This document shows positions 2,044 through 12,589 of a DNA stretch of 64,000 nucleotides, in pieces. Position 1 is the stretch's first letter; every line of letters starts with the position of its first letter. The stretch is from assembly GCA_963662285.2 (NCBI GenBank), contig CAXXMV010000001.1, forward strand, positions 768,001 to 832,000, read 5' to 3'. Source of the DNA: a bacterium (GTDB taxonomy: Bacteria > Hinthialibacterota > Hinthialibacteria > Hinthialibacterales > Hinthialibacteraceae). The notes below the pieces were generated by a model. The model was not told the DNA's origin. It made no database searches and saw nothing but the letters and a program-made list of their open reading frames with translations. The position numbers were made by a program, and so were the translations under genes.

Positions 2044-3444
2044 ATGGCTAAAGTTCAACATCTTACTCCGTCTGACAAAAGCCTTCCTAACAATTTGGAA
2101 GCGGAGAAACACGTCCTGGGCGCAATGATCCGCGACACGGATGCCATATATAAATCACAGGGCATCCTGGGTAAAGAAGCATTTTATCAGCCGGGACACC
2201 AGAAAATCTACGACGCATTGGTCGAATTAGTCTCCAGCGGTACAGCTATCGACCTGATGACCTTATCTGATTTGCTGGAAAAAAGAGGAGAAATTGAACA
2301 GGTCGGAGGAGCATTCTATCTCGCCGATTTAGTAAGCAAAGTCGCCACCACTGTCAATATTGAGTATCACGCCGCCATCGTCCGCGAAAAAGCAGTGCGA
2401 CGCCGCCTGATCCGCCAATGCACTGAAATCATTCAGGATTCTTATGATAGCGGAGATCAAGCGACTGAAATTCTATCCCGCGCAGAATCCAGCATATTCA
2501 ATATATCTCAACAACGCACCGACCGCGCTTTCGACGCCATCGGCAAACATCTGGATGCGGCTATCGAGAAAGTCCAAAATGCTCACGCCCAGCAAGGCTC
2601 GTTGACAGGTTTGGCCAGCGGATTTACTGATTTCGATCAAATGACCGCTGGTCTGCAACCATCCGACTTGATCATCCTGGCGGCGCGTCCTTCAGTCGGT
2701 AAAACCAGCCTGGTTTTGAATATCGCCGAAAACGCGGCATTAACCGGAGCTCCGGTCGGGGTATTTTCGCTTGAAATGAGCAGTGAACAGATCGCCGAAC
2801 GCGTATTATGCTCTCAAGCGCGGGTCAATCTAAAACACTTGCGTTCCGGTTTTTTCACCAAAAGAGACGCGGCTCAATTATTGCAAACCGCCAGCCGTCT
2901 CCATAGCATGCCCCTGTATATCGACGATACGCCGAACCTGACGCCCACCGAAGTATTCAGCCGTGCGCGTCGATTGAAATCCCAACAACCCAAACTGGGA
3001 TTACTCGTAATCGACTACCTTCAATTGATGTCGGGTGGAGGGCGAACCGAGAGTCGTCAGCAGGAAGTTTCTGAAATTTCACGTTCGCTTAAAATTTTAG
3101 CCCGTGACCTCAATATTCCCATAATCGCCTGTTCGCAGCTCTCCCGTGCGGTGGAAAAGCGGGACGACCACATGCCCCGGCTATCTGATCTACGCGAATC
3201 AGGCTCCATCGAACAGGATGCCGATCTGGTGGTATTTCTACACCGCGATACGCTTAAATCCGATTTTGACGAGGGCGGAGATGATGATTTAGAGGCTGGC
3301 CGGCAAATCCATTATTCATATAAACTTATTATCGGAAAACACCGAAATGGACCTATTGGAGAAATGGATATCTATTTCGCGCGTGAATACACCCGCTTCT
3401 ACGACGCCGCCCGTGAAGCCCCCGACGAAGATGTGCCGTTTTAG
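2044..3444 (+). CDS. dnaB: Replicative DNA helicase
   Basis: AARPSVGKT Walker A, IDYLQLM, SQLSR and LSDLRESGSIEQDAD motifs. Confidence 0.98.
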   Translation: MAKVQHLTPSDKSLPNNLEAEKHVLGAMIRDTDAIYKSQGILGKEAFYQPGHQKIYDALVELVSSGTAIDLMTLSDLLEKRGEIEQVGGAFYLADLVSKVATTVNIEYHAAIVREKAVRRRLIRQCTEIIQDSYDSGDQATEILSRAESSIFNISQQRTDRAFDAIGKHLDAAIEKVQNAHAQQGSLTGLASGFTDFDQMTAGLQPSDLIILAARPSVGKTSLVLNIAENAALTGAPVGVFSLEMSSEQIAERVLCSQARVNLKHLRSGFFTKRDAAQLLQTASRLHSMPLYIDDTPNLTPTEVFSRARRLKSQQPKLGLLVIDYLQLMSGGGRTESRQQEVSEISRSLKILARDLNIPIIACSQLSRAVEKRDDHMPRLSDLRESGSIEQDADLVVFLHRDTLKSDFDEGGDDDLEAGRQIHYSYKLIIGKHRNGPIGEMDIYFAREYTRFYDAAREAPDEDVPF

Positions 3445-3456
3445 GTTTTGGATTTG

Positions 3457-3516
3457 AATTATTTCTTCCCGCCCCGTGGGTGATATTTCACATGCAGTTC
3501 CTTGAACTGGCGTTCG
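3457..3516. repeat. 60-bp exact direct repeat, copy 1 (identical to the xerD 3' end)
   Basis: AATTATTTCTTCCCGCCCCGTGGGTGATATTTCACATGCAGTTCCTTGAACTGGCGTTCG is identical to 5060-5119. Confidence 0.97.
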
Positions 3517-3806
3517 CCTTTTGATTCGAGCCACTTGCGAAATGATTTTTGGCTCTCACCAGAACGTCTTCCTGCAATAATACCTTCAATACTGATATCT
3601 TCATCAAGATCGGGCCAATGAATACCTTCTCCATCTCCGATCAGCTCATAATTCTGTAATTCTTTTTCTGTGGCGTGCAGCAAGCGTGGATACCAGGCAA
3701 GGGGAACCGAAATGCTTCGGCCATCATCAAGTAGAACACGGAAGGCATTTTCAGTGAATGTGACCTCTTGGGCGTTGCATGGGTGCTCAATCGGCAAAGT
3801 ACTCAT
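3459..3806 (-). CDS. DUF2442 family protein (putative TA component) with a XerD-derived C-terminal tail
   Basis: DGRSISVPLAWYPRL...GIHWPDLDEDIS motifs. The last 18 aa, ERQFKELHVKYHPRGGKK, are identical to the XerD end. Confidence 0.9.
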   Translation of the reverse strand: MSTLPIEHPCNAQEVTFTENAFRVLLDDGRSISVPLAWYPRLLHATEKELQNYELIGDGEGIHWPDLDEDISIEGIIAGRRSGESQKSFRKWLESKGERQFKELHVKYHPRGGKK

Positions 3807-4023
3807 TCCATAACTCCAAAAATCTTATTTTGTTAAATTCTACAATTTTTTGTATCTCGCGCAACTCGTGATCTCGAAAGTGCTTTGAACGCTGCAATCT
3901 TACCGGGTCCAACCAAAATTTGGCGGTTGCCCTTTCTTTTCTGATGTGAACGTGAGGAGGTTCTTCGTGATCCGAAGCATAAAAGAAAATACGATAAGGG
4001 CCAATGTCATCGATTTTTGGCAT
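3787..4023 (-). CDS. DUF4160 family protein (putative TA partner of DUF2442)
   Basis: FFYASDHEEPPHVHI...AKFWL motif. Overlaps the DUF2442 start. Confidence 0.9.
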   Translation of the reverse strand: MPKIDDIGPYRIFFYASDHEEPPHVHIRKERATAKFWLDPVRLQRSKHFRDHELREIQKIVEFNKIRFLELWNEYFAD

Positions 4024-4066
4024 TTCACCATGTTCTCTGAGTTGGGAAGATTATCAAATCTATAAT

Positions 4067-4141
4067 TTACATCGCTCCGCATAACTGGCTGGCAATGGAG
4101 CGCAGCGGAATTGCCAGTCCGAGTTGATGCGGTTGTTAGAC
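4067..4141 (-). other. Integron attC-like recombination site with a degenerate R' box
   Basis: Minus strand reads GTCTAAC (R'') AACC GCATCAAC (L'') TCGGA CTGGCAAT TCCGCTGCGCTCC ATTGCCAG CCA GTTATGC (L') GGAGC GATGTAA. The last box has GAT instead of GTT. Confidence 0.7.
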
Positions 4142-4289
4142 AATTTCATGTTTAATTGATTATTTCAAGGTCTAGTACCCTAAATTTGACTTTGGTTCGG
4201 GGACTCATTGTGTATAGCGCCGTTGTCAACTTCTGTACGCTACCATCAACCTTGCTTGTCACCCTCAAATCAAGAAGGAAAACAAATCA

Positions 4290-4480
4290 AAGGAAACGGT
4301 AACGTATGAACACAACGGCAAAGAATACACAGACGAATATATCATAGAGGATGGCACGGTAAAAGTATTTTTAAGGGGAAGAAAAAATCGGCTCAAGTCG
4401 GCAGTCACCGTGGTAATAAAAAAGTGTTAGATCACACGCTTTTATATGAGTTGGTGATGGCGGAAGAGTCCACCGTCTAA
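4290..4480 (+). pseudogene. Possible frameshifted small hypothetical gene
   Basis: KETVTYEHNGKEYTDEYIIEDGTVKVFLRG continues as KSAQVGSHRGNKKVLDHTLLYELVMAEESTV* after a shift at the A6 run (4382-4387). No clear start. Confidence 0.3.
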
Positions 4481-4968
4481 AGATTTTTCAAGATGATAAC
4501 GATTATAATGAACACCACCACGGCAACGATGCAACCAACGTTTGAGTCTTCCGATTGATACGCCTCAACACTCTCTTTAATGCCGTCCGTTTTCGGGTCA
4601 AAAATCAAATTGACTTTGTGCTCATTAAGTTCAATCCGTTGCGTGATGGATTGCGTAATGGTGTCACGGTCTCTAATCTCTCTGAAGATAGTTGGCAAAC
4701 GCATTCTCAAGCCATCCGCCACCAATTTCTTTTCGCGGCCCAAGAAATAGTTGAGTAGTTTTTGATAGGCCACAGAGTCACCCGCCGCCAACCAACGGAA
4801 ACGATTTTCCAACGGGCCGGGCACGGTGTACTCAACCACCTTCTCATTGAGCAAATCGGTCAAACGGCTCATAACCTCTTCCTCCGGCACATCCGGGCCT
4901 ATTCTATAGGTGGTGACAGACTTGTCCCCCACGCATTGATCAATAATATATAAATATTTAAGGATCAT
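4477..4968 (-). CDS. Hypothetical protein with C-terminal TM helix
   Basis: 163-aa ORF ending GCIVAVVVFIIIVIILKNL. No family recognised. Confidence 0.6.
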   Translation of the reverse strand: MILKYLYIIDQCVGDKSVTTYRIGPDVPEEEVMSRLTDLLNEKVVEYTVPGPLENRFRWLAAGDSVAYQKLLNYFLGREKKLVADGLRMRLPTIFREIRDRDTITQSITQRIELNEHKVNLIFDPKTDGIKESVEAYQSEDSNVGCIVAVVVFIIIVIILKNL

Positions 4969-5059
4969 AGATTATCATATCATTAATGCCATCTTTTGTA
5001 TTACCAGCACTTTAACGTCCAAGTGCCCATTTATTAGTACGGAGCGCCATGTCTTTCCA

Positions 5060-5119
5060 AATTATTTCTTCCCGCCCCGTGGGTGATATTTCACATGCAG
5101 TTCCTTGAACTGGCGTTCG
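5060..5119. repeat. 60-bp exact direct repeat, copy 2 (current xerD 3' end)
   Basis: Identical to 3457-3516. Confidence 0.97.
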
Positions 5120-6009
5120 TCGAAATGGGTGTAAATCTCAGTGGTATTGATGCTGGCATGCCCCAGTAGTTGTTGTAAAACCCGGAGGTCCACCCCATTG
5201 GCCAGCAGGTGAGTGGCGAATGAGTGGCGTAGAGTATGAGGCGATAGTTTAGAATTAATTCCAGCCAACAAACCATATTTACGCAAAATTTTCCAAAATC
5301 CCATACGGCTTAATGAACGACCGAACCGGTTGACGAACAGGAAATCGCAATTGCATTTGGTGGTTAATGAAGGACGGCCCTGCTCAATATATTCCATTAC
5401 CGCTTGTTCCGCCTGATCGTGGAAAGGAACCAGGCGCTCTTTGTCGCCCTTACCAACGGTGCGCAGATACTTGAATTGAAAATTAAAATCACCCGGTCTT
5501 AAGCCCAAAAGTTCAGAGACGCGCAATCCGGTTGCATATAGTAGTTCCAACATGGCGCGGTCACGCAAGCGGAAAGCGGTATTCTCTTCACTGCTGGTCG
5601 CCTCGATCAGACGCTCCACTTCATCAATTTTCAGCGCTCCCTTAAAACGCTTGGGTGGAGAGGGAGTTCGCATCAACCTCGCCGGATCGACCTCAATATA
5701 CCCCTCCTGAGAAAGATAATTATAAAAGCGCCTGAGCGAGGAGGATTTTCTGGCTAACGAATTCTGATGCAAGCCTTTATTGCGCAGTTCTTCAAAAAAT
5801 TCCAATAGCACATTGCCCGTCACATCTTTGGGGAAAATAACCGACTGCTCTTCCAGGTAATCAATATGCTGGGCTATATCCCGCCGGTAAGCGTCAAGCG
5901 TAGCGCGGGCTGCTCCCCGTTCTAGAGATAGATAATCCAGAAACTCACGCGCATATTGATGCGCCAGAGTCGGGGTCAAGTTCTTAGCGGGTGACCGGGT
6001 ATCAGCCAT
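5062..6009 (-). CDS. xerD: Site-specific tyrosine recombinase XerD
   Basis: RDRAMLELLYATGLRVSEL, GKGDKERLVP, SPHTLRHSFATHLL, LLGHASINTTEIYTH and a terminal HPR. No IntI-specific insertion. Confidence 0.9.
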   Translation of the reverse strand: MADTRSPAKNLTPTLAHQYAREFLDYLSLERGAARATLDAYRRDIAQHIDYLEEQSVIFPKDVTGNVLLEFFEELRNKGLHQNSLARKSSSLRRFYNYLSQEGYIEVDPARLMRTPSPPKRFKGALKIDEVERLIEATSSEENTAFRLRDRAMLELLYATGLRVSELLGLRPGDFNFQFKYLRTVGKGDKERLVPFHDQAEQAVMEYIEQGRPSLTTKCNCDFLFVNRFGRSLSRMGFWKILRKYGLLAGINSKLSPHTLRHSFATHLLANGVDLRVLQQLLGHASINTTEIYTHFDERQFKELHVKYHPRGGKK

Positions 6010-6659
6010 TACGCCATGATTTCCTGTAAATAGGGATTATTGCGCCGTTCTTCTCCAACCGTAGTAGTCGGTCCATGTCCGGGATAAACAATAATATCAT
6101 CATTCAACACCAGTATTTTATCGCGGATCGACTGAGTTAATTTAACATGCGAACCGCCGGGTAAATCGGTTCGCCCGACCGTATCCTTAAATAAGGCGTC
6201 ACCGGTAAAAAGATGGTTATCGAGTAAAAAAGATACGCTTCCGGGACTATGTCCGGGGGTATGTAGAACTTTTATGGTTAAACCTTCAAAATCAATCTCA
6301 TCGCCATCATCGAGCAATTTATCGGCAGGCGGCGCCAAAACCGGCTCCCCGAAAATGCCTGACAGATTGGCTCGCGCATCAGAGAGCATAAGTTCTTCAT
6401 CCCGGTGAATAGCGATTTTCAAGTCAAATTGATCCTTCATGAATCCAATTGCTCCAATATGATCGCCATGCCCATGAGTCAGGATAATCCATGAAGGTTT
6501 TAAATTAAGTTCCTTTATAGTTTTAACAATAGTCGGCCCTTGCTCTCCCGGATCGATAATCAGGGCTTTTTTACTCTCCTTGAGATATATGATATAACAG
6601 TTGGATTGCAGCTTTCCAACTGGAATTTGGATAATTTCTATTTGCGCGGCTTGTGACAT
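6009..6659 (-). CDS. MBL-fold metallo-hydrolase (glyoxalase II/YcbL-like)
   Basis: THGHGDH, HTPGHSPG, FTGD and PGHG motifs. Translationally coupled to xerD. Confidence 0.92.
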   Translation of the reverse strand: MSQAAQIEIIQIPVGKLQSNCYIIYLKESKKALIIDPGEQGPTIVKTIKELNLKPSWIILTHGHGDHIGAIGFMKDQFDLKIAIHRDEELMLSDARANLSGIFGEPVLAPPADKLLDDGDEIDFEGLTIKVLHTPGHSPGSVSFLLDNHLFTGDALFKDTVGRTDLPGGSHVKLTQSIRDKILVLNDDIIVYPGHGPTTTVGEERRNNPYLQEIMA

Positions 6660-8662: not shown

Positions 8663-11600
8663 TTATCTTTCTGGTTTAGTAGATGGCGTTCTTCTTAATT
8701 GTACTTGAACCGATTCGCTTGACGCGGGAGATTCAAGACTTTGGTTGATAAAGAACATTATCTGATTTTTCACATTGTCCGATATTACCAGATCATCAAG
8801 GGAATCATTGTTTAAGTTAACAGTTGAAATTGAAAAACTCTGATTCAATGGAAAACTATCGGCTATCGGATTCACTACTGCATCATCATACCTCCCCGCA
8901 TCAGAACTGCAAACCATAAGCAGACTAGGTTTCTCTGATTCAATATCCTGCCCGGCCAATATAAATTCCCATTTACCATCTCCATCATAATCACCTCCGG
9001 TTATACCGCGCATTATAAAGTCAGGCGTAGAATAATGATCCCACATGATTTTTTGATCCACCAAACCATATCCAATAAACAATTCCCGGAAAAATGTATA
9101 TACCGCGATACAGGAAGGATATCCATCAACAAACCGTCCTTTCATCAATCCCAGAGGAATATTTCCTGAAACAGCCAAATCCATTTCTTTTGCCATAATT
9201 ATCCGTGGAATATTATTCTTGATTGAGCATACATAGATCATGTTTGGATTAACGCTGGTAAATACCATTTCATCAATACTATCTTCATCAATATCAACCG
9301 CAATAACATGAACCGGATTACCTTCAATATCTAATGAATTGCGCATTTCAATTGATCGATCTTTACCAATCGCCAAAACGCCAATTTCTTCATATCCAAG
9401 GCAAACCAGAGAACTTTCATGGAAATTCAGAAAATACCCTGGCGCCATATATTTATATTTTGCCGAGTGTCCTTGCTCCAAAGGCAGAGATACCCGAAAT
9501 GGTAAATCTATATCAGAATAATCATCCAGAGTTCCATCGCCGCATCCCCAATAAATGCGGATATGTGAATTGAAACCTGCCAAAAGCGCAATATCTTCAA
9601 AACCATCTACATCCAGGTCTCCCACACACGCCTCAAAACAACCTTCTCCACCGGCATCCAGCGATATCTTTTGATATTCTTCATGGGTAATACTCAACAA
9701 CAATGTCGCGGCATCGCCATCCCAATCCGCTGTCAGTAAATCGGTAATCCCATCTCCATTCAAATCCTCTGAGACCAGATCAATCGGAGACGATCCAGTA
9801 TGCTCAACTCTGGTTAATTTGAAGGACATTCTTTTTTCTTTGGATAAAATCAACAGATCCGACATGGGTGTTGGAGTTGGATTTGGCGTTTTTATTTCAA
9901 TTGGCGTAAATGTCGGGATTCTATTTGGAGAAATCTCTCGTGGTTCCACTGTTGGCTTTGGAACCGGAGTTAATCTACTTCCAGGCTCAACAACCAGCGG
10001 GAATGTAAGCGTAGGCGTTGCAGTAGACTTAATCCCAGGAGTACTACTTGGCGTATTAGTCGGTTCCGGCGTAGGTTCGATATATTTAGCAATCACAGGC
10101 AACTGAAAAAACTTATTCAACTGGAGTTCATTTGGTTTCATCCAAACCCGACCATCCGGCAATACCCTCGCTTCCTGGATATTCTCCGGCAAGGATTCCA
10201 GAATATCAAATACAATCCAGTTGCGAGGAATATCTTGCGGGATCACTTTGTCATACAAAGAAAATTCAGTAACTTTTCCATCATTCTCAGAAACCAAACT
10301 TACCGGATCGTAAAACACCTGTTCCAAAATTAAATGCGAAACTTTTATGAATATTCTTCGCGCTACTGATAAATAACCATCCGATGCGCGAATGACTGCT
10401 GAATAAAGGCCTACTGATTTTGGATTCTTGATGGACAATCGCGCATTTTCATCAATTACCAAGTCTGGAGAATCAATATTTGATTTATCGACTGTCCAAA
10501 CAAGATATTTTCTGGATTTTTCACTAGCGATCAAATAATCGTTTAAGTTCAATACTCCCTCTATAGACTGATTAATAATTACGCGAAGATCGGGAATTCT
10601 GTTCAACTGAATAAATGATGGGATATCTTCAAATCGTATCTGTGTTGGAGTTCTTGTTGGAGTTGCAGTAACTGTGGGCGTCTTTGTGGCCGTTATTGTT
10701 GGAGTATTGGTTGGCGTAAAACTTGGCTCTACTATTGGCGTCATGCTTGGCGTTGGACTGAATGTACTGGTCAGCGTCGCTGTACTGGTTGCTGTTCTGG
10801 TTGGAGAATTGATTGGTTCTAACGTTGGCGTCGCGCTTGGAGTTACATTAAATACGCTGGTCACTGTCGCTGTATTGGTTGCTGTACTCGTTGGAGACTT
10901 GGTAGGCGTAAATGTTGGTAAAGGGGTATAAGAAGGCGCTGGCGTGAAGGTTGGCGCAGACGTAAACGTTGGCTCAGGCGTGAAGGTTGATACGGGCGTA
11001 TAGGTTGGCGCAGGAGTAAAAGTGGGAACTGGCGTCGCCGTGTTTGTTGGTGTTCCGGTTGGTGTTCCGGTTGGTGTTCCGGTTGGTGTTCCGGTTTGCG
11101 TGTTGATTGGCGCCGCCGTCGGCGTTGCGCTTGGCGTTGGACTGAAGGTGCTGGTAACCGTCGCCGTGTTGGTTGGCGTATTGGTTGGTTCTACCGTCGG
11201 CGTTGCGCTTGGCGTTGGGCTGAAAGTGCTGGTGGCTGTCGCCGTGTTGGATGGCGTGTTGATTGGCTCTACCGTTGGCGTCGCGCTTGGCGTTGGACTG
11301 GAGGCGCTTGTCGCTGTTGCCGTATTTGTTGGCGTATTGGTTGGCTCCGCCGTTGGCGTCGCGCTTGGCGTTGGACTGGAGGCGCTTGTCGCTGTTGCCG
11401 TATTTGTTGGCGTATTGGTTGGCTCCGCCGTCGGCGTTGCGCTTGGCGTTGGGCTGAAAGTGCTTGTCGCTGTTGCCGTATTTGTTGGCGTATGGGTTGG
11501 CTCTACCGTCGGCGTTGCGCTTGGCATTGGACTGAAAGTGCTGGTGGCTGTTGCCGTATTTGTTGGCTTATTGGTTAGCGTCGCCGTCGGCGTTGCGCTT

Positions 11601-12589
11601 GGCTTTGGACTGAAAGTGCTGGTGGCTGTTGCCGTATTTGTTGGCTTATTGGTTAGCGTCGCCGTCGGCGTTGCGCTTGGCGTTGGGCTGAAAGTGCTGG
11701 TGGCTGTCGCCGTGTTGGATGGCGTGTTGATTGGCTCTACCGTTGGCGTCGCGCTTGGCGTTGGACTGGAGGCGCTTGTCGCTGTTGCCGTATTTGTTGG
11801 CGTATTGGTTGGCTCCGCCGTCGGCGTTGCGCTTGGCGTTGGGCTGAAAGTGCTGGTGGCTGTCGCCGTATTGGATGGCGTATGGGTTGGCTCTACCGTT
11901 GGCGTTGCGCTTGACGTTGGACTAAAGGTGCTGGTGGCTGTTGCCATGTTGGTTGGAGTATTGGTTAGAGCCGCCGTCGGCGTTGCGCTTGGCTTTGGAC
12001 TGAAAGTGCTGGTGGCTGTTGCCGTATTTGTTGGCTTATTGGTTAGCGTCGCCGTCGGCGTTGCGCTTGGCTTTGGACTGAAAGTGCTGGTGGCTGTTGC
12101 CGTATTTGTTGGCTTATTGGTTAGCGTCGCCGTCGGCGTTGCGCTTGGCGTTGGGCTGAAAGTGCTGGTGGCTGTTGCCGTGTTTGATGGCGTGTTGGTT
12201 AGCTCTACCGATGGTGTTGCGCTTGGCTTTGGACTGGAGGTGCTTGTCGCTGTTGCCGTATTTGTTGGCGTATTGGTTAGCGTCGCCGTCGGCGTTGCGC
12301 TTGGCGTTGGACTGAAAGTGCTGGTGGCTGTCGCCGTGTTGGTTGGCGTGCTGGTGGAAGTATTGGTTGGCGTAAAGGTTGGAGTTGCGCTTGGTGTTGG
12401 AGAAGAGGTTGGTGTTAGAGTATTAACCGGCGTTTTAATAACAGTTGGGGTTGGCGTATCTGTTGCTGTTGGAGTAAAAGTCATTGTGGGCGTTGCGTTT
12501 GGAGAAACGGCAAAGCTCTTAGTGACAAGAAAAACCAACCATAAAGTTAGAAGAACCTTTTGAAGATTCATTTTCCAAAAGTTTTTCAT
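8663..12589 (-). CDS. Secreted Thr/Pro-rich (mucin-like) repeat protein with C-terminal FG-GAP/VCBS repeats
   Basis: Signal peptide, about 620 aa of T/P/S/A repeats, then [32 protein letters not shown] and [10 protein letters not shown] repeats. Confidence 0.88.
11098..12349. repeat. Intragenic 78-bp tandem repeat, about 16 units
   Basis: 26-aa unit PTPSATPTA(T/E)(L/P)TN(T/K)[12 protein letters not shown]: 15 full copies plus partial ends. Adjacent 12-bp (TGTP) and 18-bp (PTFTPA) repeats. Confidence 0.95.

Follow-up and report, generated by a model that had tools for sequence, protein, structure and literature searches.

Here we describe an islet of about 1.6 kb lodged between dnaB and xerD in a bacterium of the family Hinthialibacteraceae (GenBank assembly GCA_963662285.2). 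It lies within a window of 64,000 nucleotides (nt), the whole stretch that was analysed, taken from contig CAXXMV010000001.1 (positions 768,001 to 832,000 of the forward strand), from whose first letter all unqualified coordinates are counted. The islet is bracketed by two identical 60-nt copies of the xerD 3' end, between which lie a predicted toxin-antitoxin (TA) pair of the DhiTA type and fragments of an integron-type cassette array. The islet has the look of a scar left by passive insertion, not of an active element that targets xerD, and its junction points to homology and microhomology, not to a recombinase. Our tentative explanation, in which we place somewhat less than even confidence, is that the islet is non-autonomous, partly decayed foreign DNA and that the 60-nt repeat is a long target duplication left by homology-anchored import. 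The same layout recurs around other DUF4160/DUF2442 pairs at unrelated targets, with repeats of 41-144 nt.

The frame of the locus is as follows:

2044..3444, plus strand: dnaB, replicative helicase (DnaB_C, 5.3e-101; DnaB N-terminal domain, 3e-30), a flank of the ancestral empty site.
3457..3516, minus strand: repeat copy R1, an orphan xerD tail of 18 codons, stop and 2 nt, followed by the original 12-nt spacer and dnaB.
5060..5119, minus strand: repeat copy R2, the working 3' end of xerD, assigned from sequence identity and the map of open reading frames (ORFs).
5062..6009, minus strand: xerD, intact, 315 aa (TIGR02225), with orthologues beside conserved MBL-fold neighbours in relatives.
6009..6659, minus strand: MBL-fold hydrolase gene upstream of xerD, used as a synteny marker.

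The two copies agree at 60 of 60 positions, start 1603 nt apart and are the only two in the whole assembly (7,286,025 bases in 8 contigs); a chance origin of such a repeat is impossible. R2 comprises the final 18 codons, the stop codon and 2 nt of the 315-aa ORF, which scores 330.7 bits on the XerD model TIGR02225 (cut-off 329.6) and 109.5 bits on the integron-integrase model (cut-off 265). Conserved synteny also backs the XerD identity, with the MBL-fold gene adjoining xerD at 18 of 19 relatives' loci (the exception, L005, is a 1.9-kb contig fragment), and by this marker the xerD of the window is the resident gene. Furthermore, the C-terminal motif IYTHxDxRxxxELHxx[FY]HPR is kept in the XerD orthologue at every one of the 19 loci examined in relatives, and the repeat is therefore native xerD sequence. 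For xerD itself the consequence is benign, the gene being intact.

When one repeat and the interior are removed in silico, xerD comes to stand convergent with dnaB, the dnaB stop lying 12 nt from the repeat and 14 nt from the xerD stop. An earlier note, made from the sequence alone, had already reported the exact duplication of the XerD-coding end and had proposed this reconstructed junction as a plausible empty site, and both points are borne out. The comparison set comprised 19 same-family genomes, with dnaB orthologues (65-83% identity) in 18; a high-scoring xerD orthologue shares one contig with dnaB in seven, and in four of these seven (G005, G009, G011 and G015) the two genes are adjacent and convergent, about 20-50 nt apart. 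These four belong to other genera (XerD identity 63-72%), and the convergent dnaB-xerD junction that they carry is the empty site; the 12-nt spacer next to R1 is similar, as judged by eye, to the spacer of the closest relative, G005. The two genes lie 39 kb apart in G007 and 16 kb apart and co-oriented in G012, and the remaining 10 genomes that hold both have them on different contigs. In G010, 2.6 kb separates dnaB from xerD (stretch L025, 2069-4606, contig C2) and holds a cytidine-deaminase-like ORF, a 432-aa HD-type ORF and an overlapping 187-aa ORF, names that were taken from reading the translations alone; this cargo could be a small defence-type islet. The earlier note had proposed comparing relatives for different cargo with the same repeat. 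The interval behind xerD is thus variable, with different cargo on record in G010, but the repeat is found neither there nor elsewhere: no xerD-tail duplication and no attC site of the family described below appears in 30 stretches from relatives (L004-L022 and L025-L035), where the narrow attC model misses other attC families.

Read-derived data bear on whether the islet is integrated. We compared the window with the public contigs of four runs (X1-X4, of which X3 and X4 represent one sample), which are assembled from short words whose length we take to be 31 letters. The X3/X4 sample holds 97% of the sampled words of the window. Its contigs end 30 nt inside each repeat copy, and the repeat forms a separate 60-nt contig with a depth of 10.2 in X4, against 5.3, 5.3, 5.2 and 6.3 for the flanking contigs, and of 14 in X3, against 4.0, 6.9, 7.0 and 10.2. 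The repeat is thus present twice per genome equivalent, and the islet is covered as deeply as the chromosome. One could suppose that the chromosome is empty at this site and that the 1603-bp unit exists as a circle, or occupies the site in part of the population only. Contigs from words shorter than the repeat fit the integrated form and an empty site plus circle alike, and the X3/X4 contigs do break in the repeat, giving a graph consistent with both arrangements; no contig of the four runs bridges either junction or skips 1603 nt, and contigs of this kind, which break inside the repeat, are uninformative either way. We nevertheless regard such an assembly ambiguity as highly improbable: in X4 the islet contigs (5.3 and 5.2) match the chromosomal ones (5.3 and 6.3) and the repeat has twice their depth, the assembly of 7.3 Mb in 8 contigs probably drew on reads that span 60 nt, and even a circle would have to carry 60 nt identical to xerD.

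The 1543-nt insert between the repeats (3517-5059) contains the following:

3459..3806, minus strand: DUF2442 gene, predicted DhiA-type antitoxin, chimeric (PF10387, 3.8e-24, residues 13-81).
3787..4023, minus strand: DUF4160 gene, predicted DhiT-type toxin, intact and first in the operon (PF13711, 9.8e-17).
4056..4152, plus strand (the bottom, recombining strand): intact integron-type attC, downstream of the truncated orf163 (covariance model 86.2 bits, E 8e-26).
4477..4968, minus strand: orf163, a 5'-truncated remnant of a parent of about 270 codons with a C-terminal membrane anchor and no assigned family.
5010..5059, plus strand: attC remnant with its centre deleted, of the same family and orientation as the intact attC and abutting R2.

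Along the minus strand the order is therefore xerD with R2, attC remnant (5059-5010), orf163, intact attC (4152-4056), DUF4160, DUF2442 ending in R1, spacer and dnaB, and all three insert ORFs share the minus-strand sense of xerD, the minus strand being also the top strand of the cassettes. The earlier note had recognised a TA pair and had seen no mobility gene, and both observations hold: the pair has DhiTA-type Pfam domains, and protein-level searches of the insert (ORF map, Pfam, NCBIfam and PADLOC) returned no mobility gene. Two features had escaped it, namely the attC site at 4056-4152 and the reading of R1 in frame as the C-terminus of the DUF2442 ORF (3459-3806).

By its domains and gene order, the pair is predicted to be a TA system of the kind shown experimentally in Dickeya dadantii, where DhiTA is a type II system of DUF4160 and DUF2442 proteins with the toxin gene first (PMC8198452). 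As in dhiTA, the two genes are adjacent, co-oriented and overlapping (by 20 nt, 3787-3806); the differences are the foreign 18-residue tail of the islet antitoxin and a sequence that is probably far removed from that of the Dickeya pair. All 10 residues invariant among 46 aligned DUF4160 homologues (G8, Y10, E21, H24, H26, K35, W37, P40, W72 and F76) are kept. The predicted fold (pLDDT 91.4) is a five-stranded sheet with two C-terminal helices, for which no clear match was found in the PDB (best Foldseek E 0.72; best VIA-align Z 6.2, within noise), and the idea that the H-V-H motif marks a HUH nuclease was set aside for want of a meaningful structural match. Neither protein of the pair has a match in PADLOC or NCBIfam. 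A second DUF4160/DUF2442 pair in the genome, on contig C8, is not flanked by a repeat. Separately, a metagenome contig (L195, 3001-4332) carries three DUF4160/DUF2442-like units in tandem, one DUF4160 being split in two.

Most of the rest is scrap of an integron-type cassette array. What drew attention to the intact attC was a pile-up on 4073-4139, in each of the four runs, of contigs with many different flanks. On the minus strand the site reads R'' GTCTAAC (4141-4135) ... R' GATGTAA (4073-4067), the latter a GAT variant seen by eye in a few of 99 aligned sites (e.g. L037 and L130), and it folds into a long, imperfect hairpin (-29.7 kcal/mol) with one T and one G unpaired on the plus-strand 3' arm. 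Under the published strand rule, these unpaired bases make the plus strand the bottom and the minus strand the top strand of the cassettes, an assignment that ORF orientation bears out, since ORFs lie opposite the model strand in every array examined (L109, L210, L223 and the array on contig C6). The covariance model was built from the 99 family sites and is narrow. A 25-nt centre of the site (4091-4115) is identical in at least 119 stretches (L036-L154), all bracketed by RYYYAAC...GTTRRRY, from Deltaproteobacteria, Nitrospirota, Planctomycetota, Cyanobacteria, Chlorobi, Spirochaetes, Actinomycetes and others, with two arm subtypes. attC sites are usually said to share structure and not sequence, and conservation of sequence across phyla, as in this family, is unusual.

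The second site is a remnant that has about 17 nt where relatives have about 41, with both family ends kept. The covariance model does not detect it at 5010-5059, but the two-part pattern of family ends occurs once in the window, in none of 100 shuffles, and only twice in the whole genome, as this remnant and as an intact site on contig C6. orf163 is likewise incomplete. Its homology begins at residue 16 (about 4923) and covers the C-terminal 148 residues, the start codon and first 15 codons being new; its two homologues among 5.8 billion clusters are full length (P0121, 269 aa, 97% identity; the other 272 aa, 70%), and the first approximately 120 residues of both are absent from it. No match to orf163 was returned by Pfam, NCBIfam or PADLOC. 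Furthermore, no integron integrase scores above the cut-off in the genome, which is 92.5% complete; the best TIGR02249 match is xerD itself (73.6 bits against 265). Because one attC is intact, one is gutted, one gene is 5'-truncated and the genome has no intI, most of the insert is decayed cassette-array scrap and not the coherent mini-element that had been proposed.

Related material occurs elsewhere in the genome and beyond it. Contig C6 (1800700-1804500; 6699-10430 in L247) carries an integrase-less array of four minus-strand ORFs (142, 416, 218 and 166 aa) with three attC sites of the same family between them (94, 36 and 22 bits), bracketed by a 44-nt hairpin repeat of 89% identity that may represent attC sites belonging to a different family. 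No second copy of the islet was found in the genome, the one partial match being 50 nt of attC on this contig. In X1, a marine metagenome, a contig joins 3870-4038 to 4121-4178 at near identity, such that the region upstream of DUF4160 meets sequence beyond the intact attC, 82 nt (4039-4120), most of the attC site, are missing and the two parts share 6 nt where they meet, as though slippage had removed an attC in a natural population. X2, also a marine metagenome, matches 4339-4569 with 4 differences and one inserted base.

These signs of decay bear on the age of the islet, for which perfect repeat identity had been taken to suggest a recent or still active event, a reading that finds no support here. 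The cargo is decayed, with one gene 5'-truncated, one attC gutted and the antitoxin gene truncated at its 3' end at the junction, and 60 identical bases bound the divergence of the two copies merely to roughly 1% or less.

The junction between insert and R1 carries most of our argument on mechanism. Residues 1-97 of the DUF2442 ORF are native, whereas residues 98-115 are the xerD tail. None of 17 aligned DUF2442 homologues has a xerD-like tail, and all but two longer ones end 4-9 residues past a KWL motif. The closest, P0001 (101 aa, 92-93% identical), ends ..KWLESKVGRQG*, whereas the window reads ..KWLESKGERQF and continues through the xerD tail. The junction has therefore removed the last codons and the stop that belonged to the antitoxin gene. 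In addition, the R-Q residues at the inner end of the repeat occupy the same positions in the native P0001 C-terminus and in the window, so that the cargo probably already contained about 10 nt of the repeat, as microhomology with xerD (GAC GAA CGC CAG):

3507..3516, also 5110-5119, minus strand: CGAACGCCAG, the innermost 10 nt of the repeat and the likely microhomology where insert and xerD tail meet.

In the explanation that we prefer, donor DNA from a conspecific strain, with the cargo already standing directly behind xerD, would have recombined into the recipient. One end would have been resolved by ordinary homologous recombination within xerD, and the other, broken at the 3' end of the antitoxin gene, by an illegitimate join at the 10-nt microhomology, 18 codons before the stop of the recipient xerD. 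The outcome would be a complete xerD with a donor-side tail (R2), the cargo, and the orphan tail of the recipient (R1) fused in frame to the antitoxin. Selection would then spare insertions that keep xerD whole, and the TA pair would resist loss while other cargo decays. Homology-facilitated illegitimate recombination is a known mechanism. Import of this kind would need no recombinase and would account for repeats of variable length, a cut cargo gene and, at the parallel locus L241 described below, repeat copies that diverged under selection. ComEC and DprA homologues are present in the genome and lend it weak support, both being detected in 10 of 14 control genomes as well. How the donor came by its cargo is something that this model does not explain.

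The cassette features suggest a different route, which we consider quite improbable: an integron integrase acting in trans would have inserted cassettes at a GTT/AAC site in xerD, in a reaction of the attC x attG type, and a second step would have duplicated the tail. There is an intact attC and an attC remnant inside the insert, and the minus strand of xerD offers a site GACGAA↓C (the arrow marks the point of joining), with a folded top strand that may explain both the orientation and the distal junction at an R'' box. At the distal junction, the motif GTTCGCC corresponds to R' variants of this attC family (e.g. L121), GGCGAAC lines up with the R'' boxes that the DUF2442 cassettes of L210 and L223 carry, and the X1 contig shows the same cassette junction with 82 nt of intact attC deleted. 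Cassettes are reported to insert at genomic 5'-GWT-3' sites (at G↓WT), small CALINs and SALINs (clusters of attC sites, or single attC sites, lacking integron-integrases) may arise in this way, and attC sites are easily lost by slippage; in the available text of the same preprint, the word 'duplication' does not occur (bioRxiv 10.1101/2022.09.11.507474). The geometry of that reaction, which in its canonical form predicts no duplication, is not what the window contains. The predicted product, truncated xerD joined straight to the attC remnant (GACGAA↓CATGGCG...), is absent: 56 nt of xerD tail and 8 unexplained nt (TGGAAAGA) stand between the GACGAA↓C site and the attC remnant at the proximal junction, and the distal junction has no R' box. 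Judging by P0001, moreover, GGCGAAC would be coding and the real R'' box would lie downstream of it, the genome holds no intI above the cut-off, and four clear parallel loci are without attC.

Those loci emerged from a screen of 80 metagenome loci that carry a DUF2442 relative (at most 67% identity; the contig of P0001 is not among them). The 500-nt flanks on either side of each pair, before DUF4160 and after DUF2442, were compared with each other, and the maximum of 400 comparisons between mismatched loci served as threshold. Direct flanking repeats exceeded this null maximum in 7 of the 33 pairs with full 500-nt flanks, against a single, marginal case among 80 pseudo-units placed 1.1-1.6 kb away on the same contigs. 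Four of the seven are clear duplications of the 3' end of the co-oriented gene upstream:

L172: target tRNA-Gln, repeat 68 nt, of which 50 nt are exact.
L194: target a protein gene, repeat 102 nt, of which 38 nt are exact; in-frame stop in the orphan copy.
L215: target a protein gene, repeat 41 nt, stop codon included.
L241: target a protein gene, repeat 144 nt, copies diverged.

In all four, 580-680 nt lie between the repeats, enough for the pair and its promoter region and too short for a recombinase gene, and the narrow covariance model finds no attC of the family; across the wider material it recognises integron cassettes at 3 of 80 loci or so (L210, L223 and, from another set, L109). Of 153 nt compared between the two L241 copies, 30 differ, and at the codon level 21 differences are synonymous and 6 non-synonymous. 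Both copies therefore evolved as working gene ends in different lineages, one of them arriving with the cargo from a diverged orthologue, which is what homology-anchored import predicts. A terminal motif, TGGAAAG, follows the upstream repeat here and in L172, and was dropped as a candidate signal since L194, L197, L215 and L241 lack it. Larger repeat-bounded islets ending in DUF2442 (L207, L239, L189 and L193) were also considered, and proved to be bounded by terminator-like hairpins or paralogous coding sequence.

With the same architecture at a tRNA-Gln gene and three protein genes, xerD loses the standing of a dedicated attachment site that the earlier note had given it. The alternative, the proposal of that note in general form, is a tiny integrase-less integrative element, akin to the cis-mobilizable elements (CIMEs), with the 60-nt repeats as att sites and a tyrosine integrase acting in trans, or else the last remnant of a larger element of which the TA pair survives. 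Integrative elements at icd, fda, guaA or tRNA genes restore the 3' terminus of the gene that they enter, and CIMEs are integrase-less derivatives left beside integrative conjugative elements. Here too the direct repeats are the 3' end of the target, perfect repeats rebuild it and the target gene is intact; the genome has at least five tyrosine recombinase genes besides xerC and xerD, L172 shows the layout at a classical integrase target, the replacement gene end of L241 evolved under purifying selection, and decay of the non-TA cargo fits a last survivor. We still think such an element rather unlikely. There is no integrase in or beside the islet and no sign of defined ends, and the junction cuts the antitoxin gene, which would be odd for a functional attP. 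The parallel targets, with their repeats of different lengths, would call for many integrases, each leaving just a TA pair, and in relatives nothing stands at the same position of xerD, nor was a tail duplication seen in the 30 stretches scanned. An excision joint was not seen in the four runs either, but their contigs are unable to show one. Rfam and tRNA/tmRNA scans of 3300-5300 returned no match. An integrative mobile element exploiting Xer (IMEX) at a dif-like site was considered as well; by eye part of the repeat resembles the XerD arm of Escherichia coli dif at 8 of 11 positions, with no XerC arm, and we treat the likeness as chance.

A further idea, which we would call a long shot, is that DhiTA modules are themselves selfish mobile units that lodge behind genes with long, variable 3'-end duplications, that DUF4160 may make the initiating break, and that the xerD islet dragged integron scrap along. 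The break-making role draws on the invariant E21, H24, H26, Y10 and K35 of a protein with no recognisable fold.

Several points weigh against homology-anchored import. The microhomology depends on two residues of one protein, P0001, compared at the protein level. On its xerD-proximal side the start of the islet nearly coincides with the R'' box of the gutted attC, and on its distal side GGCGAAC is R''-like and aligned with L210 and L223; together, these ends hint at an integrase involvement that lies outside our model. The proposed donor arrangement, with cargo behind xerD and no duplication, was not seen in the genomes compared, none of them conspecific, and a circle bearing 60 nt of xerD and entering by a single crossover, or an integrase in trans, gives the same final structure. 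We infer, moreover, that homology-facilitated illegitimate recombination would here yield a duplication and not a deletion, and a word-matching literature search returned no paper on duplication by this mechanism. As to the recurrence, the screen sees repeats within 500 nt of the pair and hence tight units only, and three of its seven cases are counted as ambiguous: L164 and L167 are near-identical loci with repeats of 20-21 nt, and the L197 repeat is a hairpin present in three copies in the locus. An integrative element bringing its own replacement for a gene end would leave the synonymous signature of L241 as well.

The closest known counterpart comes from restriction-modification systems. 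Insertion with long target duplication of restriction-modification gene complexes was reportedly described by Nobusato et al. in 2000. A later survey describes it for restriction-modification genes, orphan methylases and mcrA, with repeats of more than 30 bp that often lie over a start or stop codon, no mobility gene, mostly naturally competent hosts and an unexplained mechanism (PMC2853133, Furuta et al. 2010). The islet likewise places a small addiction module inside directly duplicated, unique host sequence some tens of bases long; it has no transposase or integrase, its repeat spans a stop codon and leaves the target gene whole, an empty site exists in related genomes, and the mechanism is unexplained in both cases. 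Set beside the features used in that screen, the repeat is longer than 30 bp and unique and the insert is below 20 kb, with no integrase, transposase or prophage genes, whereas its cargo is a TA pair plus integron scrap in place of restriction-modification genes, a requirement of that screen and not of the rearrangement type. The islet differs further in that its empty site is seen in other genera only and not in a conspecific strain, and in that one cargo gene is fused to the orphan repeat. The word 'toxin' does not occur in the available text of the survey (PMC2853133), and in that of PMC2654758 'long target duplication' appears merely as an entry in the reference list. A word-matching search, with most subscription journals outside its coverage, found no paper on long target duplication for TA pairs, and the titles, abstracts and passages of literature naming DUF4160 and DUF2442 (supplements being outside this scope) contain nothing on flanking repeats.

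The cassette part of the islet resembles CALINs and SALINs in its attC of a widespread family with R'' and R' boxes, hairpin and extrahelical bases, its ORFs on the cassette top strand, its small size and position outside any integron with no intI, and attC decay by internal deletion. A CALIN, in the definition of IntegronFinder, has two or more attC sites of one orientation close together; the islet differs in having one intact attC and a truncated cassette gene. Its junction geometry and its target duplication of 56-60 nt also set it apart from attG insertion, for which no such duplication is described.

Elsewhere in the window, a G/C-rich inverted repeat of 34 nt (83-161; 88% complementary, 11-nt loop) lies upstream of ExbD/TolR-like and MotA/ExbB-like genes. 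At 8663-12589, a 1308-aa ORF begins with about 600 residues of near-perfect tandem repeats rich in Pro, Thr, Ser and Ala and continues as an FG-GAP/VCBS-like region, as read by eye from the translation.

The entry of small addiction modules, both TA and restriction-modification systems, into chromosomes with no mobility gene is unexplained, and this locus offers a clean example together with parallel cases. Its main value lies in the recurrence of the pattern around the DUF4160/DUF2442 family. Should complete genomes with matched empty sites show the pattern as well, long target duplication would extend from restriction-modification to TA systems, and the locus also offers a testable route, namely transformation with one-sided homology. 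Were DhiTA modules to prove self-spreading, they would be the TA counterpart of the 'virus-like life cycle' proposed for restriction-modification genes.

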